From Woeseiaceae bacterium (lineage in GTDB: Bacteria > Pseudomonadota > Gammaproteobacteria > Steroidobacterales > Woeseiaceae): a stretch of DNA of 35,446 bases. Positions 10,302 to 33,324 of this stretch are shown one piece after another; within the stretch, counting starts at the first letter, position 1; each line of letters starts with the position of its first letter. The stretch is from positions 1-35,446 of the forward strand of contig JBFISV010000001.1 of the NCBI GenBank assembly GCA_041608415.1, written 5' to 3'. Under the pieces are notes generated by a model that was not told the DNA's origin, did no database searches, and was given only the letters and a program-made list of their open reading frames with translations. The position numbers and the translations under genes are program-made.

Positions 10302-11377
10302 CAGGTCCACGCCGGCGCCGGGGCCGTGAGACCCGCGGTTTCCGGCAGACCCCACAAGCGGTTCATCCATTGCACCGCTCCGCCAGCCGCGCCCTTGACG
10401 AGATTGTCGATGGTGCTCGTGACGACCAGCGCATCGCCTCCGAGCGCGACGCCGATTCGACAACGATTGCTGGCGACGACGCTTTTGAGGCGTGGCATGC
10501 CGTCCGCGATGTCGACGAACGGCGCATCGCCGTAGGCATTCGAATACGCCGCCCTGAGGGCCGCGATCGAAGTTCCACGAGCGGCCCGGGCCTGCAGGGT
10601 GACATGGATGCCGCGCGCGAACGGCCCCGAATGCGGCACGAAATGGACCCGTGCGTCGACTCCCGACGCGCGCGCTGCAAGCGCCTCGATCTCGGGCGCA
10701 TGGCGGTGTTCGAGCGGCTTGTAGGCGTACACGTTGCTGTGGCGCTCGGGGTGGTGAGTACCGGCCTGCGCCTGCCGCCCCGACCCCGTACTGCCCGTAA
10801 TGCCGCTGACGAAGAGTTCGCCGTCGCTCAAGCCTGCGCGCAGCAACGGCACTGCCGCGAGCAGCACGGCGGTCGCGAAGCAGCCCGGATGCCCGATGTG
10901 CGCGTGGCGCGCGTCTTTGTCGGCATGTTCCGGCAGGCCGCAGAAAAACTGCTCGAGAAGCTCCGGCGCGCCGTGTGCGCAGCCGTAGATCGCCTCGTAC
11001 GCAGACCGATCCGCAAAACGAAAGTCGGCCGAAACGTCGACGACGTGCACGTCGACCTCGCGCCCGGCGGCGGCCGCGAGCGCGCCCTTGACGAGGACCG
11101 CCGACGCGCCGTGCGGCGCGGCGGAAAACAGCGCGAGTCGGCTGCCGCGATCCAGCGACTCGATCCAGTGCCCTTCGCCGCTTTCGTGCGCGACGAACGG
11201 CAGGTCGGGGTATGCGCATTCGAGATGAGGAAATGTCGCTGCAATCGGGTGGCCCGCCCGGCTGTCCGACACCGCGGCGGCCAGCCGCAGCTCGGGGTGC
11301 GATGCAATCAGTCGCAACAGTTCGCCGCCGACGTAACCGGTGGCGCCGAGGACGGCCGCGGGGATCGATGCGCTCAC
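10301..11377 (-). CDS. argC: N-acetyl-gamma-glutamyl-phosphate reductase
   Basis: VSASIPAAVLGATGYVGGELLRL (NAD(P)-binding GxTGYxG); active-site region GHPGCFATA; C-terminal DNLVKGAAGGAVQ. The GTG start at 11375-11377 overlaps the stop of the upstream gene (GTGA). Confidence 0.9.
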   Translation of the reverse strand: MSASIPAAVLGATGYVGGELLRLIASHPELRLAAAVSDSRAGHPIAATFPHLECAYPDLPFVAHESGEGHWIESLDRGSRLALFSAAPHGASAVLVKGALAAAAGREVDVHVVDVSADFRFADRSAYEAIYGCAHGAPELLEQFFCGLPEHADKDARHAHIGHPGCFATAVLLAAVPLLRAGLSDGELFVSGITGSTGSGRQAQAGTHHPERHSNVYAYKPLEHRHAPEIEALAARASGVDARVHFVPHSGPFARGIHVTLQARAARGTSIAALRAAYSNAYGDAPFVDIADGMPRLKSVVASNRCRIGVALGGDALVVTSTIDNLVKGAAGGAVQWMNRLWGLPETAGLTAPAPAWT

Positions 11378-12429
11378 GCCGCGCGTTCCTCGAGCGAGCT
11401 GGCGATCGCATCGCCCAACGCGACGCCGTTCGTCAACGCATTCAGGGCGGGCAGGCCGAGACGCTCGGAAATCTGCTCGATGCCGACGGCATTGTCCGTC
11501 GCCGGGCCCGTCACGATCACGGGTTCGATGCCGAACTCGTCGCGCAGGATCTTGGCGCCGCCCCACGCGGAAACCGGGTCGTTCGCGCACAGGACGACCG
11601 CGGTCAGCGCTGCGCGTATGGCGGCGTCGGCCAGGATTGCTTCGACGCCGTAAGAACCGAGCAGGCCGTCCCCGAGTTCGAGAACGATGACGTCGGGCCC
11701 GTTCCGCGCGAGGCCGCTCAGCAACGCGCGCGTCAGGGCCGGCCCGTTCTCGGCCGTCGTCGTGACGACGCCGAGATCGGAGAAGATCATCGTTTGCTGC
11801 GCGCCCGCATCCTCCATCGCGAGAATGTCGCGCCGCAATGACACGCCGGTGGCCTTGCAGGCCGCGACGCGCAGGCCGAGGTGCCGCAATCGCCCGACGA
11901 TCGCACAGGCCGCCGCGGTCTTGCCGGAATCCATGCAGGTGCCGGCGAGCGCGACGACCGGCACGCCGCGCGTGTCGAGCTCGGCCTCGGGGTCCAGCGC
12001 ACTCTCGCCGACCCGCGCCGGCACACCGATGCGTTCACCCAGGTACGGGAAATCCAGCACCGTGCCGAGAACCTCGCAGTTGAACGGCGGACCGACGTCC
12101 GGATTCGCGGAGTCGCAAATGCCGAGCACGCCGCCGATGTTCAGCAGCTGAATCGTGTCACCGACGCGTAGCGTGAGCGGCAGATGACCGGAGTACCCGC
12201 GCAGGGCGTTGCGGTGACCGAGTGCGCCGACGACGATGTCGCCCTGGTTGACGCTGGCCATGCGTCCCGAGGTCAGTTCGAGCAGGTTGTAACGCGTCTT
12301 GTTGTTGAGGATGCGCACCGCGACGAGCACACCCTCTTCACACGGTATGTCGGCGGACAGGCGTATTTCTCCGCTGACGTTCGCGTGTTGTGCAACGGAG
12401 GCGATCTTGTCGACGAGGACCGGCTTCAT
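11374..12429 (-). CDS. uncharacterised protein with BioD/DUF1611-like P-loop, embedded in the arginine operon
   Basis: 351 aa starting MKPVLVDKIASV. Variant Walker A VVALAGTCMDSGKTAAA (G-x5-GKT, as in the dethiobiotin-synthase-like GTDTxVGKT). Walker-B-like VIVLELGDGL. The N-terminal ~165 aa is unassigned. Its start overlaps the argG stop (ATGA at 12426-12429) and its stop overlaps the argC start. Confidence 0.7.
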   Translation of the reverse strand: MKPVLVDKIASVAQHANVSGEIRLSADIPCEEGVLVAVRILNNKTRYNLLELTSGRMASVNQGDIVVGALGHRNALRGYSGHLPLTLRVGDTIQLLNIGGVLGICDSANPDVGPPFNCEVLGTVLDFPYLGERIGVPARVGESALDPEAELDTRGVPVVALAGTCMDSGKTAAACAIVGRLRHLGLRVAACKATGVSLRRDILAMEDAGAQQTMIFSDLGVVTTTAENGPALTRALLSGLARNGPDVIVLELGDGLLGSYGVEAILADAAIRAALTAVVLCANDPVSAWGGAKILRDEFGIEPVIVTGPATDNAVGIEQISERLGLPALNALTNGVALGDAIASSLEERAA

Positions 12430-13667
12430 GCCGTGCCCCGGCCGGCCCGCGTCTGCAGCGAGCCGGGCAGCGACAGGATACGCGCGTAACCCTCGGCATC
12501 GGCCGGCGTCCATTCACCCGCCGCTTCGCCGTACACGCCGCTCGTCGCGGCGAGCAGCGAGTATGGCGACGTCACGCCGTCGACGAACAGACTGCCCGGC
12601 CTGAGCGTAAACGCAACGCTTCCCGAGACGCGCCTCTGGGACGACACGAGCATCGCCTCGATGTCGGCGCACACGAGGTCGAGCTGTTTGCCTTCGTGCA
12701 CGAGGTCGCCGTAGATCGCGGCGACGCCGTCTTTGACCCGGGCCTGTTGCGCGCTCAGGACCAGTTTCTCCAGTTCGCGGTGGGCGGCGATCAGGGTGAT
12801 CGCGGCCGGCGCCTCGAACGCCACGCGGCCTTTCGTCCCCAGCACCGTATCGCCGAGATGGATACCGCGGCCGATCGCGTAGCGTCCGGCAAGCGCTTCG
12901 AGCGCCTCGATGAGTTCGACCGGCGACATGGGCACGTCGTCGAGGGCGACCGGGATGCCGCGCTCAAACTCGAGCGTATGCCGGGATTCGGGCGCCGGAT
13001 CGTCGAACGCGTTCGCAGAAAGCACCCAGGCATCTTCGGGCAGCGAGCTCTCCGACGTCAGCGTTTCGCGACCGCCGATCGTAATTCCCCAGAGCCCGCG
13101 GTTCGTCGAGTATTCGGACCCCTGCGCCGGTAACGGCAGGCCGCGCTCCTGCAGATACTCGAGCTGCGCCTCGCGCATCCAGCGGTGGTCGCGAACCGGT
13201 GCGAGAACCTCGAGACCCGGGCTCAGCGTCCGGAGCGCGACCTCGAAGCGGACCTGGTCGTTGCCCGCCGCGGTGCAGCCGTGCGCCACCGTCGTGGCGC
13301 GCCGATCGGCGGCGACCTGCGCGAGGCGCTCTGCCTGCAGCCCGCGCTCGGCGCCTACGCACAGCGGATAGGCCTGGCCACGCAGCACGTTGCCGGCGAT
13401 GAGGTAACGGATCACGGCATCGAAAAAATCCTGCTTGCCGTCGATCAGGATGTGCTCGATCGCACCGAGTGCCAGCGCGCGTTCCTCGAGCGCGAGCGCG
13501 GCGGCCGCGTCCAGTCCGCCCGTGTCGACCGTCGCCGTTACGACGTCGCGGCCATAGGTTTCCGTGAGCCACGGCACGCAGAAGGACGTATCGAGGCCGC
13601 CCGAAAAGGCGAGAATGATCGGCGAGTCGTTCGCCGTTGTATCGGTTACGGGCAGGTCGCTGCTCAC
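12426..13667 (-). CDS. argG: argininosuccinate synthase
   Basis: ATP-PPase motif ILAFSGGLDTS; HGCTAAGNDQVRFE; STNRGLWG. The GTG at 13667 is preceded by GGAG at a 6-nt spacing. An alternative GTG lies at 13679. Confidence 0.9.
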   Translation of the reverse strand: MSSDLPVTDTTANDSPIILAFSGGLDTSFCVPWLTETYGRDVVTATVDTGGLDAAAALALEERALALGAIEHILIDGKQDFFDAVIRYLIAGNVLRGQAYPLCVGAERGLQAERLAQVAADRRATTVAHGCTAAGNDQVRFEVALRTLSPGLEVLAPVRDHRWMREAQLEYLQERGLPLPAQGSEYSTNRGLWGITIGGRETLTSESSLPEDAWVLSANAFDDPAPESRHTLEFERGIPVALDDVPMSPVELIEALEALAGRYAIGRGIHLGDTVLGTKGRVAFEAPAAITLIAAHRELEKLVLSAQQARVKDGVAAIYGDLVHEGKQLDLVCADIEAMLVSSQRRVSGSVAFTLRPGSLFVDGVTSPYSLLAATSGVYGEAAGEWTPADAEGYARILSLPGSLQTRAGRGTA

Positions 13668-15770: not shown

Positions 15771-16676
15771 TCAGCGCTCCGCGCCGGAGAGCGCGTCGTC
15801 GATCCAGTGATCGACGAGCCGGCGCGCGATCGAGACGCGAAACGGAAGCTTCGGAAATCCCGAGCGCAATTCCTTGCGCGTAAACCAGCGCGCATCCTCG
15901 AGTTCGCCATCGTTGAGCGTGATCGCACTCGAAACGGCCTCGGCGACGAAGCCCAGCATCAGCGACGACGGAAACGGCCACGGCTGCGAACTGTGGTAGG
16001 TCACACGGCCCACGCGGACGTTGGTTTCCTCGAACACTTCGCGACGCACCGCGTCCTCCACACTCTCGCCGGGCTCGACGAAGCCCGCAATGGTCGAATA
16101 GCGGCCCTCGGGCCAGCCGCTCTGGCGTCCGAGCAGGCATTGCTTGCCGTTTGCGACGAGCACGATGATCGCCGGATCGACGCGCGGAAACAGCACGCGG
16201 CCGCAATCCGGATCGACGCACTGCCGGGAATTGCCGCCCGCCTTGGGCCGCGCCGACGAGCCGCAGATGCCGCAGTAAAGCTGCGAGCGGTGCCAGACGA
16301 CGAGCGCGCGGGCGTGGGCGACGAGATTGGCCTCGTCGGGCGGCAGCACGGTGCCCAGAAAACGGAGGTCATGGTATGCACCGAGTTCGGGAAACGGCGC
16401 GTTCGCTTCACTCGATATCGCGAACGCGAATGCGGGCCGGTCGCGGAACAGCCCGAGAAAAATCAGCTCGTCGGGATCCATCACGTAATTCGCGGCCTGG
16501 CGGTAATCGAGCATGACGGCCTTGAGCGGGTCGCCGCCGACGAGACACTGGTCCTTCCAGATCGGAACGAAGCGGCTGTCGGCGCTCGCGGCCGCCTCCT
16601 TGATCCAGTCCGGATCCTTGCGGCGCTCGCCGTTGCGATCGACGAACGCGCCCGCGAAGACGTTGTGATTTTCCAT
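15771..16676 (-). CDS. nudC: NAD(H) pyrophosphatase NudC
   Basis: Zinc ribbon CGICG...CVDPDCG; Nudix box GFVEPGESVEDAVRREVFEETNV; NudC signature SQPWPFPSSLM. Confidence 0.88.
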   Translation of the reverse strand: MENHNVFAGAFVDRNGERRKDPDWIKEAAASADSRFVPIWKDQCLVGGDPLKAVMLDYRQAANYVMDPDELIFLGLFRDRPAFAFAISSEANAPFPELGAYHDLRFLGTVLPPDEANLVAHARALVVWHRSQLYCGICGSSARPKAGGNSRQCVDPDCGRVLFPRVDPAIIVLVANGKQCLLGRQSGWPEGRYSTIAGFVEPGESVEDAVRREVFEETNVRVGRVTYHSSQPWPFPSSLMLGFVAEAVSSAITLNDGELEDARWFTRKELRSGFPKLPFRVSIARRLVDHWIDDALSGAER

Positions 16677-16720: not shown

Positions 16721-17314
16721 TCAGCGTTGCGCGAAACTCCGCACCCCGGGTCGGCGTCTCAAATGGGCCTCGATTTCGCACGACGGGCAGGTCTTGAGAT
16801 CGACGGCGTAGGCGTCCTGCACGTAGCGCGAACGGCAACCGCGGCACACTGCAACGACGAGTTCGTCGTTCCAGCAGAGTGCGAGCAGCAGGTTCCATGC
16901 CCATTCGAAGCTGAATACCGGCTTGTCGTGCAAGAGCAGGTAGTTCTCGAACGCGCGGCAGACGCGATGCCCGAATTCGACATCGGGGCGTGGCCAGTAC
17001 GCGTGCACACGGTTATCGGCGTCGATGCCCATGAGCAGGCCGGCACAGTACAGCGACAGCAGCGTCGTCGACTGCAGCTGGTGCTCCGAGTTGCGTACGA
17101 AGCGGCCGATCTGCCGCGGAGACTTGCCGCGCCGCCGGCGCACGTCGCTGCGTCCTACGTGCTTGAAGTAGCGTGCGTAGAGCTTGCGGATGCGATCGTC
17201 GGAGAGCCCGGTGCAGTCACGGATCGTCCGCGTCCGTGCCTCGTGGCCAATCATCCTGAGCGCGAGCTCGAATTGTGCGCGTTCGCCCGCATAGCGGTCG
17301 TCGGTAAGGCGCAT
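16721..17314 (-). CDS. FlhC-like zinc-ribbon transcriptional regulator (non-flagellar context)
   Basis: 197 aa. The N-terminus FELALRMIGHEARTRTIRDCTGLSDDRIRKLYARY parallels E. coli FlhC [35 protein letters not shown]. It has CxxC-N15-CxxC (VCRGC...CPSC) at the position of the FlhC zinc site. Confidence 0.7.
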   Translation of the reverse strand: MRLTDDRYAGERAQFELALRMIGHEARTRTIRDCTGLSDDRIRKLYARYFKHVGRSDVRRRRGKSPRQIGRFVRNSEHQLQSTTLLSLYCAGLLMGIDADNRVHAYWPRPDVEFGHRVCRAFENYLLLHDKPVFSFEWAWNLLLALCWNDELVVAVCRGCRSRYVQDAYAVDLKTCPSCEIEAHLRRRPGVRSFAQR

Positions 17315-17445
17315 TTTTTTCTTCTCTTGCTAGAAATCGCCCATATATAGGCTAACATTTGCGTTTATTATCCATAATTGGGATGCAAAGACAATATATA
17401 GTTACTACTGAATCGACCCAGATTCGGGACATCCGGAGACGACGC
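17315..17445. promoter_or_regulatory. AT-rich divergent control region between the FlhC-like and FlhD-like genes
   Basis: A 131-bp spacer strikingly AT-rich relative to its flanks. Direct repeat ATATATAG at 17343-17350 and 17394-17401. GGAGA Shine-Dalgarno before the ATG at 17446. Confidence 0.5.
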
Positions 17446-18201
17446 ATGAATTATCAGCCGCCCGATTCGGCCGACCTGGCCAACGTCTACTCGCTCAACC
17501 TCGCTTTTCTGGACATGATCAGGCATTCCGAAAGCGCCAGCGCCCTGCTCGGGCCTCTGCCTCCCGACGCCGCGGGCCGTCTCGAGCAACTCGATTCGAT
17601 CGCAATCGAACGGCTCGCGCGCTGCCCGTTCCTGGTGTTCTCGCTCGGCGAGCACGATGGCCCCCGCTGGCGGCGGCTGTTCGCCAGCCCGCGAACGGCG
17701 GACCTGATCGCTGCGCTGGAAAGGCCCGATCCGGGGGCGGCTCGCATCGCCGCGGCGGCGCTTGCGTTCCTGTGGCAGCTCGCAAAGCGGCGCCCCTACT
17801 CCGCGAGGGTGCTCTGCGGCGCGCCGCTTCAATGGTGCGGGCATCTCGCGGCCCTGACGCTCGTCGAGCTGTTCGACCTCGCGCTCAATGAGGACGCCCT
17901 GCTCGAGTTCCGCTTCGCGGACAATGCGCCGTTCTGGCGCAAACTGATCAACGCGGGGACGAGCGACGAGGCTTCGATACGCGTCGCCGCGCGTGTCACC
18001 GCGCTGCAAACGATGCTCACGGCCGTAGGGTCCGAAGATCGATTCGAGCGCCTGCCGGCGGCGGCTTGCGCCATGCGGCCGCCCGCAGAACGCGTTGCGG
18101 ACCACGGCCATGTGTCGCAAGGCGAAGCGCGTGGTTACAATACGCCGCCTGATGCTCGCGCTCTCGATAAGAAATCTCACCAAAACCTACGCGAACGGTA
18201 A
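17446..18201 (+). CDS. protein with two tandem FlhD-like repeats (pseudo-dimeric FlhD-like)
   Basis: 251 aa. Repeat 1 (aa ~11-68): VYSLNLAFLDM...LDSIAIERLARCPFLVFSLGE. Repeat 2 (aa ~101-160): ALAFLWQLAK...HLAALTLVELFDLALNEDALLEFRFAD. Compare E. coli FlhD IYDINLSYLLLAQ...[26 protein letters not shown]. The 3' end overlaps the yadG start by 50 nt. Confidence 0.6.
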   Translation: MNYQPPDSADLANVYSLNLAFLDMIRHSESASALLGPLPPDAAGRLEQLDSIAIERLARCPFLVFSLGEHDGPRWRRLFASPRTADLIAALERPDPGAARIAAAALAFLWQLAKRRPYSARVLCGAPLQWCGHLAALTLVELFDLALNEDALLEFRFADNAPFWRKLINAGTSDEASIRVAARVTALQTMLTAVGSEDRFERLPAAACAMRPPAERVADHGHVSQGEARGYNTPPDARALDKKSHQNLRER

Positions 18202-19087
18202 GCAGGCACTGAAAGGCATCGACCTCGATGTGGAGGCGGGCGATTTCTATGCATTGTTGGGGCCGAATGGCGCGGGCAAAACGACGGCCATCGGCATCAT
18301 CACCTCGCTCGTGAACAAAACCTCGGGCGACGTCGAAATATTCGGCCACAACATCGAGCGCGAGATCGAAGCGGCGAAAGCCGCAATCGGGCTGGTGCCG
18401 CAGGAGATCAATCTCAACCTTTTCGACAGCGTGCAAAACATCGTGATGAACCAGGCCGGCTACTATGGCCTCGGTCGCAGACTCGCCCGGGAGCGAGCCG
18501 AGCATTACCTGCGCGAACTCAGGCTCTGGGATCGGCGCGACGACAGCGCCCGTATGCTATCGGGCGGCATGAAACGGCGCCTCATGATCGCACGCGCCCT
18601 CGTCCACGAGCCCAGACTCCTCATGCTCGACGAGCCGACGGCGGGCGTCGACATCGAGATCCGCCGCTCGATGTGGGATTTCCTGACCGAGATCAATGCG
18701 GCCGGCACGACGATCATCCTGACGACACATTACCTCGAGGAGGCGGAGTCGCTGTGCCGCCATGTGGCGATCATCGACGACGGCAGGATTATCGAAGACG
18801 CACCGATGAGCACGGTGCTGCGCAAGCTGCAGCGCGAAGTCTTCGTGCTGAGCCTCGCCGACGAGCTGCCGCGCGCGCCGGCGCTCGACGGCTTCGAGGC
18901 GCGCCTGCGCGCGGACGGCGAACTCGAAGTCGCGATCGGGCCCGGCCGCACGCTCAATGACCTGTTCGCGCGGCTGGGCGAGCAGCAAATCCAGGTGCTG
19001 AGCCTGCGCAACAAGGCCAACCGGCTGGAGGAATTGTTCCTGCGGCTCGTCGACAACCGGCAGAACGGGGACGGGTCGAAGGCATGA
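18152..19087 (+). CDS. yadG: ABC-2 type transporter ATP-binding protein YadG
   Basis: Near-collinear with remembered E. coli YadG. Walker A GPNGAGKTT, signature LSGGMKRRL, Walker B LLMLDEPTAGVD, C-terminal SLRNKANRLEELF. Confidence 0.9.
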   Translation: MLALSIRNLTKTYANGKQALKGIDLDVEAGDFYALLGPNGAGKTTAIGIITSLVNKTSGDVEIFGHNIEREIEAAKAAIGLVPQEINLNLFDSVQNIVMNQAGYYGLGRRLARERAEHYLRELRLWDRRDDSARMLSGGMKRRLMIARALVHEPRLLMLDEPTAGVDIEIRRSMWDFLTEINAAGTTIILTTHYLEEAESLCRHVAIIDDGRIIEDAPMSTVLRKLQREVFVLSLADELPRAPALDGFEARLRADGELEVAIGPGRTLNDLFARLGEQQIQVLSLRNKANRLEELFLRLVDNRQNGDGSKA

Positions 19088-19857
19088 ACATCGCCCTCAA
19101 TGCGATTGCCGTAAAAACGGTGGTGCAGAAGGAAATCATTCGCGTACTGCGCATCTGGGTGCAGACGATCGTGCCGCCCGCGATCACGATGACGCTGTAT
19201 TTCGTGATTTTCGGCAACCTGATCGGCAGCCGCATCGGCCCGATGGACGGCTTCGATTACATGGCGTATATCGCGCCGGGCCTGATCATGATGTCCGTCA
19301 TCACGAGTTCCTATGGCAACGTCGTCTCGTCGTTCTTCGGCGCGAAATTCGGCCGCCACGTAGAGGAAATGCTCGTCGCGCCAATGTCCAATGCGGCCAT
19401 CGTGATCGGCCACGTCGCGGGCGGAGTCCTGCGCGGCCTGTTTGTGGGCGCGCTCGTGACGGCGGTTGCGCTGTTCTTCACCAAACTCGAGGTCGAACAT
19501 CCGTTCATCACGCTCTCGGTCGTGTTGTTGTCGTCGATCGTGTTTTCGCTGGCCGGATTCGTCAATGCCGTGTTCGCGAAAAAATTCGACGACATTTCGA
19601 TCGTGCCGACCTTCGTCCTGACGCCGCTGACGTATCTCGGTGGCGTGTTTTATTCGATCTCGTTGCTGCCGGAGTTCTGGCAGAACGTGTCGCGCGCGAA
19701 CCCGATCCTGTACATGGTCAACGCGTTTCGCTACGGCATCCTCGGAACCTCCGACATCAGCATTCTGCACGCCTACGCGATCCTGTTCGTGTTCGTCGTG
19801 GCATTGTTCTCACTTTGCCTGCTGCTCATGAATCGCGGCGTCGGCATCAGGGAGTAG
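19084..19857 (+). CDS. yadH: ABC-2 type transporter permease YadH
   Basis: RIWVQTIVPPAITMTLYFVIFGNLIGSRIG and TPLTYLGGVFYS match remembered E. coli YadH closely. The ATG overlaps the yadG stop (ATGA). Confidence 0.9.
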   Translation: MNIALNAIAVKTVVQKEIIRVLRIWVQTIVPPAITMTLYFVIFGNLIGSRIGPMDGFDYMAYIAPGLIMMSVITSSYGNVVSSFFGAKFGRHVEEMLVAPMSNAAIVIGHVAGGVLRGLFVGALVTAVALFFTKLEVEHPFITLSVVLLSSIVFSLAGFVNAVFAKKFDDISIVPTFVLTPLTYLGGVFYSISLLPEFWQNVSRANPILYMVNAFRYGILGTSDISILHAYAILFVFVVALFSLCLLLMNRGVGIRE

Positions 19858-27188: not shown

Positions 27189-28151
27189 ATGCAGGCGATT
27201 GCCAGGGCGCAGCCGAACATTGCCCTCATCAAGTATTGGGGCAAGCGCGACCGTGCGCTGAATTTGCCGGCCGTCGGTTCGATATCGATCACGCTCGCCG
27301 ACCTCTATACCGACATGGACGTGAAATTCGATGCCGCACTCGCAGCGGACCGGCTCACGCTGAACGGCGACGAAGAGGCCGCGATGCTGCCGCGCGTCAG
27401 CCGCTGTCTCGACACCGTGGCGGGATCGGGGCGAGCCGCCGCGCGCGTCGAGAGCCACTCTAATTTTCCGGTTGCAGCCGGACTCGCATCGTCGGCATCG
27501 GCATTCGCGGCGCTGGTTGTCGCTGCATCGGGCGCGGCCGGGGGGCAACGGCCGACGGACGAACTGGCGCGCCTCGCGGGCCGCGCGTCGGGATCCGCGG
27601 CGCGCTCGCTGTACGGCGGCTTCGTGGAGCTCGGCTTGAACGGCGACGGCATCGAGGTGGCGACCCTGCTCGCAGCCGAAGCGTGGCCGCTGGCCGTCGT
27701 CGTCGCCGTGACCGACACGGGTGCGAAGCCTGTCGGCTCCGGCGATGCCATGGAAATCAGCCGCAGGACGTCGCCCTTCTACGGCCGCTGGATCGACGAT
27801 CAGCCGCGTGACCTCGCGACGGCGCGTGCGGCCATTCTCGCCCGCGACTTAGAGGCGCTCGGCGTCGTTGCCGAGCACAACTGCCTCAAGATGCACTCCG
27901 TCATGTGGTCGTCGCGGCCACCCATCGTGTACTGGAACGCCGCGACGCTTGCGTGCATGCACGCCGTTCGCGAACTGCGATCCAGCGGTGTCGGCGCATT
28001 CTTCACGATCGACGCCGGGCCACAGGTCAAGGCCGTGTGCCCGGGCGCCGACGCGCCTCGCGTGCGCGCGGCGTTCGAATCGATCCCGGGAGTCGCTGCA
28101 GTGTTGACGAGCGGCCTCGGCGGTGGCGCGCGCCTGACGGCGCGGCGATGA
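27189..28151 (+). CDS. mvaD: diphosphomevalonate decarboxylase
   Basis: PNIALIKYWGKRD; GHMP motif AAGLASSASAFAAL; GSGSAARS-like RASGSAARSLYGGF; FTIDAGPQV. Confidence 0.9.
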   Translation: MQAIARAQPNIALIKYWGKRDRALNLPAVGSISITLADLYTDMDVKFDAALAADRLTLNGDEEAAMLPRVSRCLDTVAGSGRAAARVESHSNFPVAAGLASSASAFAALVVAASGAAGGQRPTDELARLAGRASGSAARSLYGGFVELGLNGDGIEVATLLAAEAWPLAVVVAVTDTGAKPVGSGDAMEISRRTSPFYGRWIDDQPRDLATARAAILARDLEALGVVAEHNCLKMHSVMWSSRPPIVYWNAATLACMHAVRELRSSGVGAFFTIDAGPQVKAVCPGADAPRVRAAFESIPGVAAVLTSGLGGGARLTARR

Positions 28152-29074
28152 AACGGCTGCGAAGCAGCGCGCCGGGCAAGGTCGTGTTGTCGGGCGAATA
28201 CGCCGTTCTCGACGGCGCTCCCGCCGTCTCGATGGCCGTGAACCGGCGCGCCGTCGTGACTCTCGATGCGGCCGCCACGGCGGCGATTTCCTCGCTCGGG
28301 CTCCGCGGGAAGACGGATACGCGCCTGTTCGACGCCGTGCAAACGGCATGGTCGCTTGCACCCTGGGAGGGCGCCGCGGTTCTCGATACGCGGGCGTTCG
28401 CGGATCCGGCGTCCGGCAGGAAATTCGGCATCGGCTCGAGCGCGGCCCTGGCCGCGGCGCTCGCGGCGGCATTCGCGCCGAGCGGCACTGCGGAGGAAGA
28501 ACTGTTCGCCGTCGCGCGGCGGGCGCATCGCGAGTTTCAACGGGACACGGGCAGCGGTGTCGATGTCGCGACCAGCGTCTTCGGCGGCCTCATCGAGTAC
28601 ATCATCGACGAGAGCCCGCGCCGTCTGACCTGGCCCCGGGATCTGTGCTTCGCGCTGCTGTGGAGCGGCGAGCCCGCGAACACCGCGCAGAAGCTCGCGC
28701 GCCTGGAGGCGGCCCCGAAGGCAGCCAGCCGCAGCGCGCTCGGCGCGGCCGCGGCGCGCGTCGCGGCGGCCTGGGCCGGCGGCGATGCGGCAAGGCTCCT
28801 CGGCGAGTATCGTGACTATTTGCACGCTCTGCGGTCGTTCGATGTTGACCATGGTCTCGGCATATTCGATGCTGGTCACGATGCTCTTCTGCGCGCAACA
28901 CAAACATCCGATCTCGTCTACAAACCCTGCGGCGCCGGCGGCGGCGACATCGGCATCGTTTTCGGCCTCGAAGAAGGGGCTGTCAGGGCATTCTGCGCCA
29001 CGGCCGCGTGCCTCGGCTTTCGCCCGCTCGACATGACGATGGAGACCGCGGGCGTGCGGGTTACCGGCGTATGA
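28148..29074 (+). CDS. phosphomevalonate kinase (GHMP family)
   Basis: SAPGKVVLSGEYAVLDG, GIGSSAALAAAL, KPCGAGGGD. The ATG overlaps the mvaD stop (ATGA at 28148-28151). The function is assigned by position as the third GHMP kinase of the cluster. Confidence 0.75.
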   Translation: MKRLRSSAPGKVVLSGEYAVLDGAPAVSMAVNRRAVVTLDAAATAAISSLGLRGKTDTRLFDAVQTAWSLAPWEGAAVLDTRAFADPASGRKFGIGSSAALAAALAAAFAPSGTAEEELFAVARRAHREFQRDTGSGVDVATSVFGGLIEYIIDESPRRLTWPRDLCFALLWSGEPANTAQKLARLEAAPKAASRSALGAAAARVAAAWAGGDAARLLGEYRDYLHALRSFDVDHGLGIFDAGHDALLRATQTSDLVYKPCGAGGGDIGIVFGLEEGAVRAFCATAACLGFRPLDMTMETAGVRVTGV

Positions 29075-31290
29075 GCGACTCGCGACTCGCCGGATTCTAC
29101 CGGCTCACGAGCGACGCGCGCGTCGATGAACTCGAGCGACGCGGCTGGCTGTCGCGCGAGGACGCCCGCATGCTCAGGGACGGAGGGCACCTGCTGTCGG
29201 TGGGCGCGGCCGACAAGATGATCGAGAACGTCATCGCGAATTTCGGCCTGCCGCTGGCCGTCGCCCCGAATTTTCTCGTCAATGACTGCGACCGCCTGGT
29301 GCCGCTGGTCGTCGAGGAGCCCTCGATCGTCGCCGCGCTCAGCGCATCGGCACTGCTCGCGCGCGCTTCCGGCGGCTTCGAGGCGCGTTGCGACGAATCC
29401 CTCGCAATCGGGCAGGTCCACCTGGCGGGGCTCGGCGACCCGGACGCCGCGATCGAGGCGATCGCGTCCGCCAAGACGTCGCTGCTTGAAACGGCGAACG
29501 CGGTTCACCCGCGGCTCGCACGCCGCGGCGGCGGCGTGCGCGACATCGAGGCGCGCTCGCTCGACCTCGAAGACGGCGGCCGTGCGCTGGCAATACACCT
29601 GCTCGTCGATACCTGCGACGCGATGGGCGCGAATCTGGTCAACACGATCTGCGAGGCGCTTGCGCCGGAGCTTGCGCGGCTGTGCGAAGCCCGCGTCGTG
29701 ATGTGCATCCTCTCGAACCTCACCGACCGCTCGCTGGTTTCGGCGCGGGTTCGCTACCGGTGTGCCGATCTCGGCGTCGACGACAGGGCTGCGAGACGGG
29801 CACGGGACGCGATCGTGCTGGCGAACGAGATCGCCTCGGTCGATCCGTACCGGGCGGCGACGCACAACAAGGGCATCATGAATGGTATCGACGCGCTCGC
29901 GATCGCGACGGGCAACGACTGGCGTGCCCTGGAGGCCGGTGCGCACGCGTATGCGGCGGCCGACGGACGCTATAAGCCGCTCACGCGCTGGTCGGTGAAC
30001 GGCTCGGGCGATCTCTGCGGAAAAATCGAATTACCGCTCAAGGTCGGCATTGTCGGCGGCACGCTCGAGGCCAATCCCGCAGCGGCCATCGGACTCGCGA
30101 TCAGCGGCGCACGGTCGGCGCGTGAACTCGCCGAGCTCATGGCGGCAACCGGGCTCGCGCAGAATTTCGCCGCATTGCGCGCACTCGTGACGACCGGCAT
30201 ACAGCAGGGGCATATGCGCCTGCATGCACGCAGTGTCGTCGCCGCGAGCGGAGCCCCGGCCGGGCTGTTCGACGAAGTGGTCGCAGAACTCGTTGCGAGC
30301 GGCGAGGTCAAGGAATGGAAAGCGCGGGAAATACTCGCAGAGATCCAGGCTGCGGCAGAGCCCGCAGAGGGTGCATCCGCCGCCGGCAAGGTCATCCTGC
30401 TGGGTGAGCACGCGGCGGTTTACGGCAGGCACGCGCTTGCGCTGCCGATCGAGCGCGCGGTCATTGCGAGCGCAGCGCAAAGCCCCGTATCGACGGTCAC
30501 GATTGCCGCCTGGGGCGTGCACGATGAGATTCGACGCGGCACCGACATCGGCGACGCCATCTTGCTGATTGCCGGGGAACTCGGCATCGCCGACAGGCAT
30601 TTCGCGCTGCAGGTGACGCCATGCCTGCCGCGCGCAATGGGCCTCGGTTCTTCGGCTGCGTTCGCGGTCGCAATCACCCGCGCGCTCGGTCGCGCGTTCG
30701 GCGTTGCGGCGGGGGACGAACGCGTCAACGCAATCGCGTTCGAATGCGAAAAGCTCGCGCACGGCACACCTTCCGGCGTCGACAATACGGTTGCAACCTA
30801 TGCGGCACCGATGCTGTTCCGGGCCGGCGAATCGCTGGCCGGGAAGGTGCTCGAACTCACGGAGCCGCCTCCGCTCGTCGTTGCGTGCAGTACGAGCCCG
30901 GGCTCGACGTTCGAACAGGTGGCCGGCGTTCGCGCCCGCCGCGAGGCCGAGACCGTTCGCTACGAGGCGCTGTTCGACCGCATCGACGAGCTGACGCTCG
31001 CGGCCGCCGACGCATTGGTAGCGGCAGACTACGCGGGGCTCGGCCGGCTGCTGAATATCGGCCACGGACTGTTGAACGCGCTCGAGGTGTCCACGCCCGA
31101 ACTCGAGCGCATGGTCGCCATTGCGCGCAGCGCCGGCGCACTCGGCGCGAAACTGACGGGCGCGGGCGGCGGCGGATCGATCGTTGCGCTGTGCCCCGGT
31201 CGGGTCGGCGCCGTTCGCGAGGCTCTGCACGCGGCCGGTTTCCGCACAATTGCGCTTGCGAGCCCCCGGGAACCCGATGATGACGAATGA
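29071..31290 (+). CDS. bifunctional class II HMG-CoA reductase / mevalonate kinase fusion
   Basis: 739 aa, single uninterrupted frame. The N-terminal ~430 aa carry class II HMGR motifs EEPSIVAA, DAMGANLVN, ATHNKGIMNGIDA, VGIVGGT, GHMRLHARS. A short linker AAAEPAEGAS follows. The MVK motifs are GKVILLGEHAAVYG, GLGSSAAFAVA, KLTGAGGGGS. No in-frame ATG/GTG/TTG near the junction (~30350-30400). The ATG overlaps the PMK stop (ATGA). Confidence 0.85.
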   Translation: MSDSRLAGFYRLTSDARVDELERRGWLSREDARMLRDGGHLLSVGAADKMIENVIANFGLPLAVAPNFLVNDCDRLVPLVVEEPSIVAALSASALLARASGGFEARCDESLAIGQVHLAGLGDPDAAIEAIASAKTSLLETANAVHPRLARRGGGVRDIEARSLDLEDGGRALAIHLLVDTCDAMGANLVNTICEALAPELARLCEARVVMCILSNLTDRSLVSARVRYRCADLGVDDRAARRARDAIVLANEIASVDPYRAATHNKGIMNGIDALAIATGNDWRALEAGAHAYAAADGRYKPLTRWSVNGSGDLCGKIELPLKVGIVGGTLEANPAAAIGLAISGARSARELAELMAATGLAQNFAALRALVTTGIQQGHMRLHARSVVAASGAPAGLFDEVVAELVASGEVKEWKAREILAEIQAAAEPAEGASAAGKVILLGEHAAVYGRHALALPIERAVIASAAQSPVSTVTIAAWGVHDEIRRGTDIGDAILLIAGELGIADRHFALQVTPCLPRAMGLGSSAAFAVAITRALGRAFGVAAGDERVNAIAFECEKLAHGTPSGVDNTVATYAAPMLFRAGESLAGKVLELTEPPPLVVACSTSPGSTFEQVAGVRARREAETVRYEALFDRIDELTLAAADALVAADYAGLGRLLNIGHGLLNALEVSTPELERMVAIARSAGALGAKLTGAGGGGSIVALCPGRVGAVREALHAAGFRTIALASPREPDDDE

Positions 31291-31858
31291 CGCGCACCGC
31301 ATCGTCTCGTCGGAGGCCGAGGAGCTGATCCTCGTCGACGAACACGACAATGAAACCGGCTACCTTTCGAAGGCGGCCTGTCACGACGGCGCCGGCCGGT
31401 TGCACCGCGCGTTTTCGGTGTTCCTGTTCGACGATCGCGGCGCCGTGCTGCTGCAGCAGCGCGCGGCAACGAAGCGCCTCTGGCCGGGGTACTGGTCGAA
31501 CAGCTGTTGCAGTCATCCACGCCGCGGGGAATCGATGCGGATTGCCACGGCGCGACGTCTGCAGGACGAACTGAACGTCGTGGCGGAACTCGAGTTCGTC
31601 TACAAGTTCACTTACCGGGCGGGCTTCGGCGAGGCCGGTTCCGAGAATGAGCTTTGTTATGTCTACCTGGGGCGGGTCTGCGGCGATGTCCGGCCCAACG
31701 AACACGAGATCGCACAGGTTCGATTTCTCCCCGTGGACGACCTCGATGCGGAACTCGAAACCGGCCCTGGCCGCTTCACGCCATGGCTGCGGATGGAGTG
31801 GCGCGCGCTCAACGAGCAGCACGCCGAACTACTGTCCCGTTATGCGATGAAGCGGTAG
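31277..31858 (+). CDS. idi: isopentenyl-diphosphate delta-isomerase, type 1
   Basis: HRAFSVFLF and WSNSCCSHP (catalytic Cys region; cf. E. coli WTNSVCGHP), ENELCYVY, FTPW. The start MMTND overlaps the 3' end of the fusion gene by 14 nt. Confidence 0.88.
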   Translation: MMTNDAHRIVSSEAEELILVDEHDNETGYLSKAACHDGAGRLHRAFSVFLFDDRGAVLLQQRAATKRLWPGYWSNSCCSHPRRGESMRIATARRLQDELNVVAELEFVYKFTYRAGFGEAGSENELCYVYLGRVCGDVRPNEHEIAQVRFLPVDDLDAELETGPGRFTPWLRMEWRALNEQHAELLSRYAMKR

Positions 31859-33324
31859 TACTCGATACCGACGTCGCTGAAATAGCGCTCGTCGCTGCCG
31901 CCGACACGGTCGATCAGGAACTCGTTTTTCGGCAGGTAGTCGAGTCCGGACACGGAGCGACCGTCGTGCAGCGCGACGTACTGTTCGTAATCGAGATCGA
32001 CGGCCAGTTGCATCGCGCTGCCGAAACCGATCCGGGCGGTCGCCTCGCGCCAGCCGTCGGCGATGAAAAACGGGATTACCTCGGCCGCGTCGCCGCTGCC
32101 GTAGCCGAGCGTGAGTACTTCTTCGCCGGCGGCGAGCGAACCCTCGTCGAGCCCCTGTTCGAAGCCCGCGGCCAGCCACGCCGGCAATGCCGCCGTATAA
32201 AGGTTGCCGAGGTCGAGCATCGTGTCGCTGCCGATCGCGAGCTTGTCCAGGATTTCGCGCCGGTAGCGTCGCGAGGCGCGAAACGCACGTAACGCCGCCA
32301 TCGTGAGCGGGTAGGCCTCGTAGTTGAGCTGCTCGGGATTGGCAAGCGCCGCCACTGCGGGGCGGCCGAGCATTTCGGCGGTTACGGCATGAGGGTCGAC
32401 GCCCGCGTCATAACAGTACGACGCGAGTTCCGCGCGGTCTTCGGCGTCGCCGCTCGACAGGGCAAACAGGTAGGAGACAGCCAGCCCGGTTTCGGGCATG
32501 CGGCGGTACGGCCGATGCATGAAAACGGTCTCGAGCGAGCGCAGGTAATCGATGGCGTTCAGTTTGCGCTTCTCGTACATGTCGTTGAGGGCGTGCAACG
32601 TCTCGTCGATGTAACAGGTCGTGGAGTACTTGCCGTTGAAGACCGGGAAGTCCTGCACCTGGTGCGTCTCCGAGCGGTCCTGGCCGCAGAAGCGTGACAT
32701 GGGCTTGCGAAAATCCATGATGCGATAGTCGGATGCGGATCCGGAGCCGACCAGGTCGACGATCGCGAGTGCGGGATCTTCCTCGAGCAGCATCGCTACC
32801 GCGCCCGCGCCCTGGGTCGGCTCACCGCTCGAGCCCCGTGCATACTCCGCGATGTCGGCGCAAACGACGATCGCCTGGTTGCCGGCCCCGTCGAGAGCCA
32901 GATGCCGGATCGCGCCCTTCATGCCGTAAACGCCGCCGAGGCAGGCGTGCTTGAACTCGGGAACCTCGCAGCTGCGCGCGATAGGCGGCTTGCCCCGCGC
33001 CTCGAGCGCGTGGTCGACCATTCCCTTGACGATAATCGCGCCGGCCGAGTTATCGGTACTCGATTCGGTGCCCAGGCCCAGGAATTTAACGCGCGTCGGG
33101 TCGATGTCGTACTGGTCGATGAGTCGCATGACGGCCGTCGCGGCCATGGTATAGACGCTCTGGTCCGGGCCGCGGACGCGGAAACTGCGCCCGACGACTT
33201 CGCGGATCTTGGGCCACTGGTTATTCGTCCAGTCGCACCAGTCCTCGAGCCATACGCGGTACGGTGGAATGTAAGCGGCGAGGCCGCTGATGCCGATAGG
33301 TTTCATTTGCACGCGTCGCTTCAT
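31840..33324 (-). CDS. mvaS: hydroxymethylglutaryl-CoA synthase (long form)
   Basis: Catalytic Cys region EFKHACLGGVYG, NGKYS, GYGSG. 488-494 aa (start at 33324 or MKPIGISG at 33306). Its 3' end overlaps the idi 3' end by 19 nt (convergent). Confidence 0.8.
   Translation of the reverse strand: MKRRVQMKPIGISGLAAYIPPYRVWLEDWCDWTNNQWPKIREVVGRSFRVRGPDQSVYTMAATAVMRLIDQYDIDPTRVKFLGLGTESSTDNSAGAIIVKGMVDHALEARGKPPIARSCEVPEFKHACLGGVYGMKGAIRHLALDGAGNQAIVVCADIAEYARGSSGEPTQGAGAVAMLLEEDPALAIVDLVGSGSASDYRIMDFRKPMSRFCGQDRSETHQVQDFPVFNGKYSTTCYIDETLHALNDMYEKRKLNAIDYLRSLETVFMHRPYRRMPETGLAVSYLFALSSGDAEDRAELASYCYDAGVDPHAVTAEMLGRPAVAALANPEQLNYEAYPLTMAALRAFRASRRYRREILDKLAIGSDTMLDLGNLYTAALPAWLAAGFEQGLDEGSLAAGEEVLTLGYGSGDAAEVIPFFIADGWREATARIGFGSAMQLAVDLDYEQYVALHDGRSVSGLDYLPKNEFLIDRVGGSDERYFSDVGIEYYRFIA

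Follow-up and report, generated by a model that had tools for sequence, protein, structure and literature searches.

A divergent gene pair on a chromosomal contig of a Woeseiaceae bacterium probably encodes both subunits of a chromosomal transcription activator, a remote member of the heteromeric sigma-70 class represented by FlhDC, AcaCD and SetCD, in the form of a DD' + C complex. One subunit is FlhC-like. The other, the D-like protein, is a single chain carrying two FlhD-like domains. Woeseiaceae are among the most abundant and ecologically dominant bacteria of marine sediments and are hard to culture. The pair lies within the 35,446 nucleotides analysed here (contig JBFISV010000001.1), which we refer to as the window.

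The FlhC-like regulator gene (16721..17314, minus strand) encodes 197 amino acids, and the D-like gene (17446..18201, plus strand) encodes 251. The plus-strand reading frame extends from a TTG codon over positions 17359-18201; the start of the D-like protein is the ATG at 17446, which is used by all homologues and is preceded by GGAG 8-11 nt upstream. The two genes are separated by an AT-rich spacer of 131 bp (17315..17445), whose length is constant, at approximately 126-133 bp in most loci. A nudC-like NUDIX gene (15771..16676, minus strand) follows 44 nt downstream of the FlhC-like gene, is found in 78 of 80 loci and probably shares one transcript with it. Downstream of the D-like gene lie the genes for a yadG-like ABC-2 exporter ATPase (18152-19087, plus strand; 76/80 loci) and then for a yadH-like ABC-2 permease (19084-19857, plus strand; 73/80 loci).

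The arrangement of the pair is conserved throughout the family. We found the divergent C/D pair in 81 of 84 loci, all from Woeseiaceae-type gammaproteobacterial assemblies, the remaining three having no upstream DNA. Head-to-head order across the spacer of about 130 bp is kept in every one of the 81 loci that have upstream DNA, which bears out the initial description of the genes as divergent rather than operonic. The same description had called the FlhC-like gene an orphan; this holds for its database annotation, but biologically the C gene always comes with a D partner. Even the remotest D-like representative checked (E=1.8e-27) still adjoins a C gene. The synteny around the pair is shared by 80 species-level genomes, and as one wider synteny is common to all loci, vertical descent in a single family could be enough to explain the co-occurrence of C and D. 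In distance-matrix comparisons, the C-D partial correlation is 0.377, second of 15 gene pairs, behind the ABC ATPase-permease pair (0.479) and slightly above the unrelated NudC-ABC ATPase pair (0.348).

The FlhC-like protein is recognized by family models at low scores. Pfam FlhC (PF05280) matches it with E=5.6e-5 and 23.4 bits, under the gathering cutoff of 27, and the NCBIfam FlhC equivalog model (NF009365) with 2.9e-5 and 23.9 bits against a cutoff of 216. Most of its close homologues have a precomputed PF05280 match, and some bear the NCBI name "FlhC family transcriptional regulator". A profile built from 17 family sequences matches Cupriavidus necator FlhC (8j56_C) with E=1.5e-5 and Escherichia coli FlhC (2avu_E) with 0.021, in both cases over the N-terminal helix and the cysteine region. 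The near-invariant N-terminal helical segment, residues 11-47 (QFELALRMIGHEARTRTIRDCTGLSDDRIRKLY; 17174..17284, minus strand), aligns to the N-terminal helices of FlhC, where it pairs with residues 27-63 of 8j56_C and 7-45 of 2avu_E. The putative zinc site C157xxC160-N15-C176xxC179 (16778..16846, minus strand) aligns to the FlhC cysteine cluster in the same two structures. Its four cysteines are invariant in 17/17 homologues, and metal binding is predicted. The reading of the minus-strand gene as FlhC-like, with a CxxC-N15-CxxC site, is thus borne out; by these comparisons, the protein is a remote FlhC homologue and not an equivalog. The gene is strongly conserved, with 67-82% identity among Woeseiaceae loci.

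The D-like protein had been described as two consecutive segments that each resemble FlhD, and profiles of each half support this. Searched against 177,635 PDB sequences, the family profile of half 1 (residues 10-87) places FlhD structures on top (8j56_A, 5.1e-5; 5hxg, 1.6e-3; 1g8e, 7.8e-3). For the profile of half 2, the best PDB match is again FlhD 8j56_A, with E=0.0076 and 0.074. We place FlhD-like domain 1 at residues 8-90 (17467..17715, plus strand) and FlhD-like domain 2 at residues 96-193 (17731..18024, plus strand). Aligned by hhalign, domain 1 matches enterobacterial FlhD with P=4e-5 (z about 11 relative to shuffled controls). For half 2, the similarity to enterobacterial FlhD by itself is borderline (P=0.06, equalled by 1/60 shuffles); this FlhD profile is itself weak, the search with E. 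coli FlhD having returned solely enterobacterial sequences of at least 80% identity. The self-alignment called for by the first-pass annotation places the two halves in register, with P=2e-4 and a score of 24.4 (z about 8). Column shuffles score 10.2±1.8 with a maximum of 14.8, so that 0/60 reach the observed value, and the reversed alignment scores 10.2. Searches with the Pfam FlhD and FlhC profiles, expected in the same annotation to give two FlhD matches in one chain, yield the FlhC match described above but only one weak FlhD match (PF05247, half 2 alone, E=0.07, 13.8 bits against 27) for the single window sequence, both lying below threshold. Across 112 D-like family members, FlhD is the sole recurrent Pfam family (15/112 at E<=0.01, best 1.3e-4), and none of the members tested reaches the Pfam FlhD threshold. 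Both domains have conserved cores, and the chains of the family comprise 210-250 amino acids with two domains each. The short identities with FlhD that had first drawn attention, LAALTL and FRFAD, are both present in domain 2 of the window protein; LAALTL is not kept across the family, so its exact identity with the FlhD hexapeptide is partly luck.

Structure prediction gives a similar picture. An AF2 model of the full D-like chain (pLDDT 87.3, pTM 0.79) repeats one pattern twice, consisting of a long helix, three short helices, a beta bridge and a helix, and the whole-chain pTM of this model suggests a defined inter-domain arrangement. In a Foldseek search of the PDB, the best match of the full model is FlhD 2avu_B (TM 0.70 on the target, rmsd 2.8 Å), and the only structural matches of low rmsd are FlhD chains. 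A separate model of half 2 finds FlhD in each of its 10 best matches among 350,542 chains, with TM 0.49-0.60. Owing to the small size of the domain, the Foldseek E-values are weak (0.5-4). A Foldseek search of viral structures (BFVD) gave no meaningful match, all rmsd values exceeding 13 Å.

Past domain 2, the D-like protein contains an RLPAAAC motif (residues 202-208; 18049..18069, plus strand), of which AAAC is near-invariant in the family, followed by a lineage-specific C-terminal tail (residues 216-251; 18091..18198, plus strand; pLDDT 56-70). The tail overlaps the promoter and start of the ABC gene and is absent from all but about 14 of the 112 family representatives, its occupancy being 0.31; in other loci its DNA is read in other frames or lies 3' of the stop codon. 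We considered and rejected the tail peptide RGYNTPPD as a protein domain, since what is conserved is the TACAAT box before the ABC gene at the DNA level, with a frame that differs by species. This box belongs to the invariant sequence GGTTACAATACGC (18133..18145, plus strand) and forms a -10-like element whose end lies 10 nt ahead of the yadG-like gene's ATG (18152), consistent with a separate, near-leaderless promoter for that gene. The D-like gene is the fastest-evolving at the locus, its mean p-distance of 0.58 being 2.4 times that of the C gene (0.24).

The closest parallel to this architecture is found in AcaCD, the master activator of IncA/IncC conjugative plasmids, whose relatives include SgaCD of SGI1 and SetCD of the SXT/R391 ICEs. 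AcaD, the D subunit, comprises about 200 amino acids (22.8 kDa); AcaC and AcaD co-purify, and activation requires both (PMC4207636). AcaCD is likewise a two-protein, non-flagellar activator of the FlhDC family, with a C subunit of about 180-200 amino acids bearing a C-terminal cysteine cluster and a D subunit of about 200 amino acids made of two FlhD-like repeats (for the D subunit, the comparison is with AcaD). AcaD is an unambiguous tandem FlhD duplication, its N-half aligning to its C-half with P=1e-9 and 28% identity, and it is colinear with the D-like family over both repeats (P=2.6e-4, 152 columns). AcaC in turn aligns to the C-like profile with P=7.7e-4 over 132 columns. The proposal in the first-pass annotation that the pair forms an undescribed variant of the FlhDC activator is not supported in that form by these comparisons: judged by the alignments, the fused-D design already exists in the experimentally studied AcaCD, and the Woeseiaceae pair is a variant of a known regulator type. 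In our literature search we found no description of tandem FlhD or of this C/D pair in Woeseia, and the literature found on AcaCD does not point out the tandem-FlhD make-up of AcaD.

The two systems also differ in several respects. The acaD and acaC reading frames overlap and are co-transcribed on a conjugative plasmid, where they activate tra genes, whereas the Woeseiaceae genes are divergent, core-chromosomal and family-wide, and lie among housekeeping genes. Regulators of the AcaCD/SetCD type reside on a conjugative plasmid, an ICE or a mobilisable island and control tra, xis or int, unlike the pair described here. Identity between AcaCD and the Woeseiaceae pair is at noise level, and the relation is visible to profiles only. 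The AcaD repeats are much more alike than the halves of the D-like protein, and AcaD-C is best matched by half 1, so that the halves do not look orthologous; on these alignments, the two fusions may be independent.

Compared to FlhD4C2 (PDB 2AVU, 8J56, 1G8E), the flagellar master of Enterobacterales and Betaproteobacteria, both subunit folds are homologous to those of the pair. The Woeseiaceae C-like protein has in common with FlhC the four-cysteine zinc site and alignable N-terminal helices, and each D-like domain finds its best matches, in structure as in sequence, among FlhD chains. FlhD, however, is a single domain of about 116 amino acids that forms a homodimer, whereas the D-like protein fuses two domains in one chain. 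The genes flhD and flhC form one operon with D first, in contrast to the divergent Woeseiaceae genes, which have no flagellar genes nearby, and neither window protein attains the Pfam gathering score (23.4 and 13.8 bits against 27). A third system, BisDC of ICEclc from Pseudomonas, is likewise an activator of heteromeric type with no flagellar role; it owes its name to the analogy with FlhDC, and the similarity of its C subunit to FlhC is weak. BisD joins a ParB-like CTP clamp to an activator domain, without detectable FlhD similarity, and BisC has no zinc site (bioRxiv 10.1101/2024.09.16.613209). The Woeseiaceae pair, by contrast, has clear FlhD-like domains and an invariant four-cysteine site, and none of the 112 D-like family members has a ParB-type Pfam match.

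The genomic context of the pair is that of a core-chromosomal locus outside any ICE or plasmid. The window consists of housekeeping genes such as polA, arg genes, dinB and genes of the mevalonate pathway, and within its 35 kb we found no conjugation genes, integrase, relaxase, T4SS or ICE. The absence of flagellar, conjugation and integrase genes near the pair, remarked on at the outset, is therefore upheld across the window, as is a position outside known ICEs, the flanks being housekeeping and free of mobile-element genes. PADLOC gave no match at the locus. A tblastn search with the C-like protein revealed no near match in a collection of 72,556 plasmids and gave only two marginal matches (E 0.5-1), which we rejected as instances of the same architecture, as they represent a distinct 391-aa FlhC-family protein of Cupriavidus megaplasmids located beside conjugation genes.

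This context bears on the alternative that the pair is the flagellar class-I master of Woeseiaceae, a very divergent FlhDC that switches on class-II operons elsewhere in the chromosome. We regard this as unlikely, albeit the best-placed of the competing explanations. Canonical flhDC is usually found beside motAB/che, and the masters of non-enteric Gammaproteobacteria are generally of the FleQ/sigma-54 type; both points count against it, as do the lack of flagellar or chemotaxis genes within 35 kb and the sequence of the pair, which is as distant from canonical FlhDC as from AcaCD. The homology of both proteins to FlhC and FlhD speaks for a flagellar role, nothing in the window contradicts distant targets, and most sediment Woeseiaceae MAGs contain complete flagellar gene sets (PMC12175321). 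Planktonic Woeseiaceae MAGs are reported to be without flagella (PMC12175321). The supplementary tables of the Woeseiaceae comparative-genomics paper hold no flhC, flhD or fleQ entries.

The spacer between the two genes carries conserved promoter-like elements. Its most conserved block, CCAATTATGGATAATA (17366..17381, minus strand), includes a GATAAT -10-like hexamer directed at the FlhC-like gene; the block occurs once in the window and is confined to the spacer in related loci. A TATATA-centred palindrome (GCCCATATAT/ATATATAGGC; 17339..17352) forms a conserved block on the side of the FlhC-like gene, and a second TATATA-centred palindrome (ACAATATAT/ATATATAGT; 17391..17402) lies 51 bp from the first, where it overlaps a -10-like box that would serve the D-like gene as well as the -35-like box for transcription in the other direction. 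The spacer motifs recur neither elsewhere in the window nor within ±4 kb at 80 loci, so that no local targets can be assigned. An Rfam search of the locus gave only ilvB-OMG, within the C-like coding sequence, which we take as a chance match (23.8 bits against a gathering score of 95.9).

For the heteromeric activator that we favour, we propose the following arrangement. The two FlhD-like domains would pack together as the intramolecular counterpart of the FlhD homodimer, and each D-D' chain would bind one FlhC-like subunit, so that the particle, (DD')2C2, would resemble FlhD4C2. Indirect evidence for a C-D complex comes from the strict co-occurrence of the two genes and from their partial correlation of 0.377, and AcaCD offers a precedent for a fused D subunit that works together with a C subunit. 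As is the case for FlhDC, SetCD and AcaCD, the complex would recruit RNA polymerase from a site that coincides with the -35 region of its targets or lies immediately upstream. Its own spacer is a probable site of action, with the two palindromes there flanking the face-to-face -35/-10-like elements. Such action would set the C:D ratio and, via the C transcript, the expression of nudC-TANGO2, while the remaining regulon would lie outside the window.

The divergent genes count against this reading, as FlhDC, AcaCD and SetCD are co-transcribed, the usual way to hold stoichiometry. They are compatible with a different role, in which the D-like protein modulates the FlhC-like protein, opposes its activation or has no part in its action, with the FlhC-like protein binding DNA by itself; we consider this improbable. 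FlhC alone can bind DNA, and with promoter-like elements that face each other and overlap, expression of the two genes is more likely to be anti-correlated than equimolar. The 2.4 times faster evolution of the D-like gene points in the same direction. Set against these are the conserved cores of both D domains, the strict pairing with the C gene and the behaviour of all characterised relatives, FlhDC, AcaCD and SetCD, which need both subunits for activation (PMC4207636). That the FlhD likeness is a chance feature of an all-helical protein, and the D-like gene an unrelated conserved hypothetical beside an FlhC-family regulator, is very improbable: no single statistic is overwhelming (Pfam E=0.07; Foldseek 0.5-4; half 2 against enterobacterial FlhD P=0.06), but independent methods all lead to FlhD and to no other family, FlhD being the top PDB sequence match for each half, the sole recurrent Pfam family and the entire structural top 10 for half 2, shuffle and reversal controls never attain the scores for half 1-FlhD, half 1-half 2 or D-like-AcaD, and the gene adjoins an FlhC homologue.

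Thousands of database entries for this FlhC-family protein give the impression of orphans, since its partner has no source name where looked up and all tested members fall below the Pfam FlhD threshold; with a recognized D partner, these entries become a testable two-component activator. A fused D common to the D-like protein and AcaD, a driver of multidrug-resistance plasmid transfer, makes (DD')2C2 instead of D4C2 a structural hypothesis for AcaCD-type activators too. A chromosomal relative outside mobile elements also bears on the origin of the master switches of plasmids and ICEs. Pending identification of the regulon, the practical value stays moderate. More speculatively, and with less than even odds, the single-chain D-D' pseudo-dimer activator of Woeseiaceae may run neither a flagellar nor a conjugative regulon, its fusion having arisen independently of that in AcaD. 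If so, the linked nudC-TANGO2 genes (NAD/NAD-cap turnover) and the ABC-2 exporter genes would be possible targets, and the pair would constitute a third functional class of the FlhDC-type regulator family. Independent fusions would further point to a path, taken more than once, that leads from hexameric D4C2 to tetrameric (DD')2C2.

The FlhC-like gene (16721-17314, minus strand) encodes 197 amino acids, and the D-like gene (ATG at 17446 to 18201, plus strand) encodes 251 amino acids beginning MNYQPPD, confirming the divergent arrangement described in the first-pass annotation. The two are separated by a spacer of 131 bp (17315-17445), AT-rich compared with the 65% GC of the window. The plus-strand ORF was listed with a TTG start at 17359; its homologues all start at the ATG at 17446, with a GGAG 8-11 nt upstream. 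Codon-position GC (0.72/0.51/0.77) and conservation in hundreds of homologues establish the D-like ORF as a real gene. Canonical FlhD is a single, dimer-forming chain of ~116 amino acids, co-transcribed with flhC. In contrast, the Woeseiaceae locus fuses two domains into one chain and sets the genes divergently.

As a single sequence, the FlhC-like protein matches Pfam FlhC (E=5.6e-5; 23.4 bits, short of the 27-bit cutoff) and NCBIfam FlhC (E=2.9e-5). A word-indexed search at E<=1e-3 returned 2,666 clusters of homologues; the best 120 share 72-82% identity, mostly carry a precomputed PF05280 match and, where the source is named, stem from Woeseiaceae or 'Gammaproteobacteria' MAGs. A 17-sequence profile aligns to solved FlhC from Cupriavidus necator (8j56_C, E=1.5e-5) and E. 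coli (2avu_E, 0.021) across the N-terminal helices and the Cys region, and C157xxC160-N15-C176xxC179 is invariant, in line with the helical N-terminus and CxxC-N15-CxxC site originally proposed. An Rfam ilvB-OMG RNA match (16823-16936, plus strand; 23.8 bits against a gathering value of 95.9, E=2.9e-4) lies antisense to the FlhC-like coding region and is probably due to chance.

The whole window consists of housekeeping genes. Besides the pair it carries polA, argH/F/D/C/G/R, a carboxylesterase, TANGO2, nudC, a yadGH-like ABC-2 exporter, SRAP, a DegV/Dak2 protein, T2SS-B/GspA-like genes, dinB, ispA and a gene cluster for the mevalonate pathway. Across the 35 kb there is no gene for an integrase, relaxase or T4SS and none for flagella, as first noted for the immediate surroundings, and the window thus reveals no hidden ICE. 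A flagellar role for the pair, for which the flagellar genes possessed by sediment Woeseiaceae (PMC12175321) speak, is unlikely. The mevalonate cluster (27189-33324), here in a gammaproteobacterium, comprises diphosphomevalonate decarboxylase, GHMP kinases, a NUDIX-type IDI-like gene, HMG-CoA synthase and a 760-aa ORF (29008-31290) combining HMG-CoA reductase with a GHMP-kinase domain. A 379-aa ORF (11374-12513, minus strand) between argG and the downstream arg genes has good coding statistics and no Pfam match; at its place, two related loci (L001 and L003) carry a syntenic 351-aa gene, also with no Pfam matches.

Scanning one genome per GTDB species located the C gene in 251 genomes, the best 80 of which are all Woeseiaceae or unclassified gammaproteobacterial/'Chromatiales' MAGs. 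Of 84 fetched loci, 81 have the D-like gene upstream of C in divergent orientation; the other three offer less than 210 bp of upstream DNA. Neighbours are similarly retained among 80 loci (NudC 78, ABC ATPase 76, permease 73, TANGO2 71, SRAP 67), and a D-like protein among the most remote listed (E=1.8e-27) has the same gene arrangement. Because of this pairing, the equally conserved neighbours and the remote member of identical layout, the pair belongs to the vertically inherited core of the Woeseiales lineage; shared occurrence with these neighbours is not in itself proof of a functional link. Within the locus, the C gene evolves slowly (mean p-distance 0.24) and the D gene faster than any other (0.58). 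Their distance-matrix partial correlation of 0.377 ranks second of 15 pairs, behind the ABC ATPase and permease, which interact physically (0.479); lying little above NudC-ABC ATPase (0.348), it is no more than suggestive. That the D-like protein works as a modulator or anti-activator, rather than as an activator subunit, seems improbable.

Evidence for two consecutive FlhD-like segments, claimed by eye at first, comes from family profiles. A six-sequence D-like profile searched against 177,635 PDB sequences has FlhD chains as its best two matches, one per half: 8j56_A at positions 99-190 (E=0.0076) and 5hxg_B at positions 8-89 (E=0.46). An exhaustive HMM search yielded 741 representatives at E<=1e-3, from which 112 sequences were aligned. 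Half 1 of this alignment matches FlhD at E=5.1e-5, 1.6e-3 and 7.8e-3, and a half-2-only profile again retrieves 8j56_A first (E=0.074), with almost the entire domain aligned. The two FlhD matches expected in one chain thus emerge from profiles, whereas the single sequence gives a sole Pfam FlhD match, in half 2 (E=0.07). Scanned singly, 15 of the 112 members match Pfam FlhD at E<=0.01, and no other family recurs. Self-alignment of the halves with hhalign, also anticipated, places residues 20-85 onto 107-174 (P=2e-4) and pairs W75 with W164, the conserved Trp that follows the beta element; the score of 24.4 exceeds all 60 column shuffles (10.2±1.8, maximum 14.8) and the reversed alignment (10.2). 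Against enterobacterial FlhD, half 1 scores 28.7 (shuffles 9.95±1.6), and half 2 is marginal with the same narrow set (P=0.06; 1/60 shuffles reach its score). We assign half 1 as FlhD-like with high confidence and half 2 with good confidence. The resemblance of repeat 2 to FlhD stands, although its exact LAALTL identity was partly luck, since that segment varies in the family. A chance resemblance of the D-like protein to FlhD is very improbable.

The AlphaFold2 model of the D-like protein (deep alignment; pLDDT 87.3, pTM 0.79) shows one helix/bridge pattern occurring twice: H8-27, H31-35, H40-48, H51-58, bridge 65-66 and H72-80, then H96-115, H117-124, H128-136, H139-148, bridge 154-155, H161-170 and H176-193. 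Its best Foldseek match in the PDB is FlhD 2avu_B (target TM 0.70, rmsd 2.8 A, probability 0.97), with only FlhD chains among the low-rmsd matches; for half 2 modelled alone (pLDDT 85.8), the best ten of 350,542 chains are all FlhD. Beyond domain 2 lies a near-invariant RLPAAAC motif (18049-18069, plus strand; residues 202-208) with a conserved cysteine and no counterpart in the FlhD or AcaD alignments. In most family members the chain stops at about residue 215-220; the low-pLDDT C-terminal tail (18091-18198, plus strand; residues 216-251) is present in ~14/112. We rejected this 'RGYNTPPD...' tail as a conserved protein domain: in related loci (L012-L072) its DNA falls in other reading frames or beyond the stop codon, and its seeming conservation reflects read-through of conserved promoter DNA around a TACAAT box upstream of the ABC ATPase.

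This -10-like box, in GGTTACAATACGC (18133-18145), lies 10 nt before the ABC ATPase ATG (18152), and GGTTACAATACGC is invariant and present in 70/80 related loci. Its distance from the start codon suggests a dedicated promoter for the yadG-like ABC ATPase and a near-leaderless transcript whose start falls within the 3' end of the D-like ORF. Spacer length changes little across loci (mostly 126-133 bp), and conserved blocks lie within it, namely CCAWTTATGGATAATA (17366-17381), whose GATAAT -10-like box is oriented towards the C gene, and a pair of TATATA-centred palindromes at a distance of 51 bp (17339-17352 and 17391-17402). By eye, the putative -35/-10-like elements of the two genes appear face to face and overlapping, flanked by the palindromes, a geometry that would make the two divergent promoters compete. 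These motifs recur neither in the window nor within +/-4 kb in 80 loci, a range in which they nominate no further local target; they are putatively either promoter cores or autoregulatory operators.

The closest parallel in architecture is AcaCD, whose subunits AcaD (22.8 kDa) and AcaC (22.2 kDa) co-purify, are both needed, and show merely 'weak' Pfam similarity to FlhD and FlhC, respectively (Carraro et al., PMC4207636). Our acaD-acaC set comprised the IncC plasmid pAR060302 (acaD at L087:33425-34033; NC_012692.1 163424-164032) and two divergent relatives (L088:1501-2106; L089:1501-2103). Pfam FlhD covers only the second repeat of AcaD (residues 106-179), and in hhalign its two halves match each other at P=1e-9 (28% identity, 71 columns; score 54.7, shuffles 10.9±2.4). 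Sequence comparison thus shows that the IncA/C master activator has a D subunit, AcaD, consisting of an FlhD-like domain duplicated in tandem. The AcaCD, SetCD and SGI1 papers examined do not mention this, and searching full texts turned up no such description. Both repeats of AcaD align colinearly with the Woeseiaceae D-like family (P=2.6e-4 when match columns follow the first sequence; P=2.6e-3 with -M 50, score 27.0, shuffles 13.0±2.4, maximum 18.5), and 132 columns of the C-like profile align with AcaC (P=7.7e-4). For the AcaD C-half, D-like half 1 is a better match than half 2, and the two repeats resemble each other far more closely in AcaD than the halves do in the D-like protein, so that the two fusions may have arisen separately. 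Since a characterised activator subunit is built likewise, the fused D is not unique to this locus and does not support calling the pair an undescribed variant. BisDC differs in kind, BisD being a ParB-like clamp hybrid and BisC lacking the zinc site. A Cupriavidus taiwanensis conjugative megaplasmid (NZ_LT984809.1, L085:4305-5480) carries another, longer FlhC-family architecture, a 391-aa 'FlhC family transcriptional regulator' preceded by a 402-aa hypothetical protein and adjoined by type IV pilus and conjugation genes.

Following established knowledge of FlhD4C2 (2AVU) and the class-II-type activation of AcaCD/SetCD, we infer that the D-D' chain may act as an FlhD dimer within one molecule. 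Joined by two C subunits, a pair of these chains would form a (DD')2C2 activator that would bind at or near the -35 region, recruit sigma-70 RNA polymerase and probably autoregulate at its own spacer. The FlhDC-type reading is partly borne out: both proteins are homologous to their FlhDC counterparts, the D chain has two domains, divergent pairing is strict and the context is core-chromosomal; its novelty is reduced by the fused D already present in AcaD. As a whole, the pair is a variant of the FlhDC/AcaCD kind, not a categorically new regulator, and is set apart by its divergent genes, its family-wide core-chromosomal location and its cryptic, unannotated double-FlhD partner.
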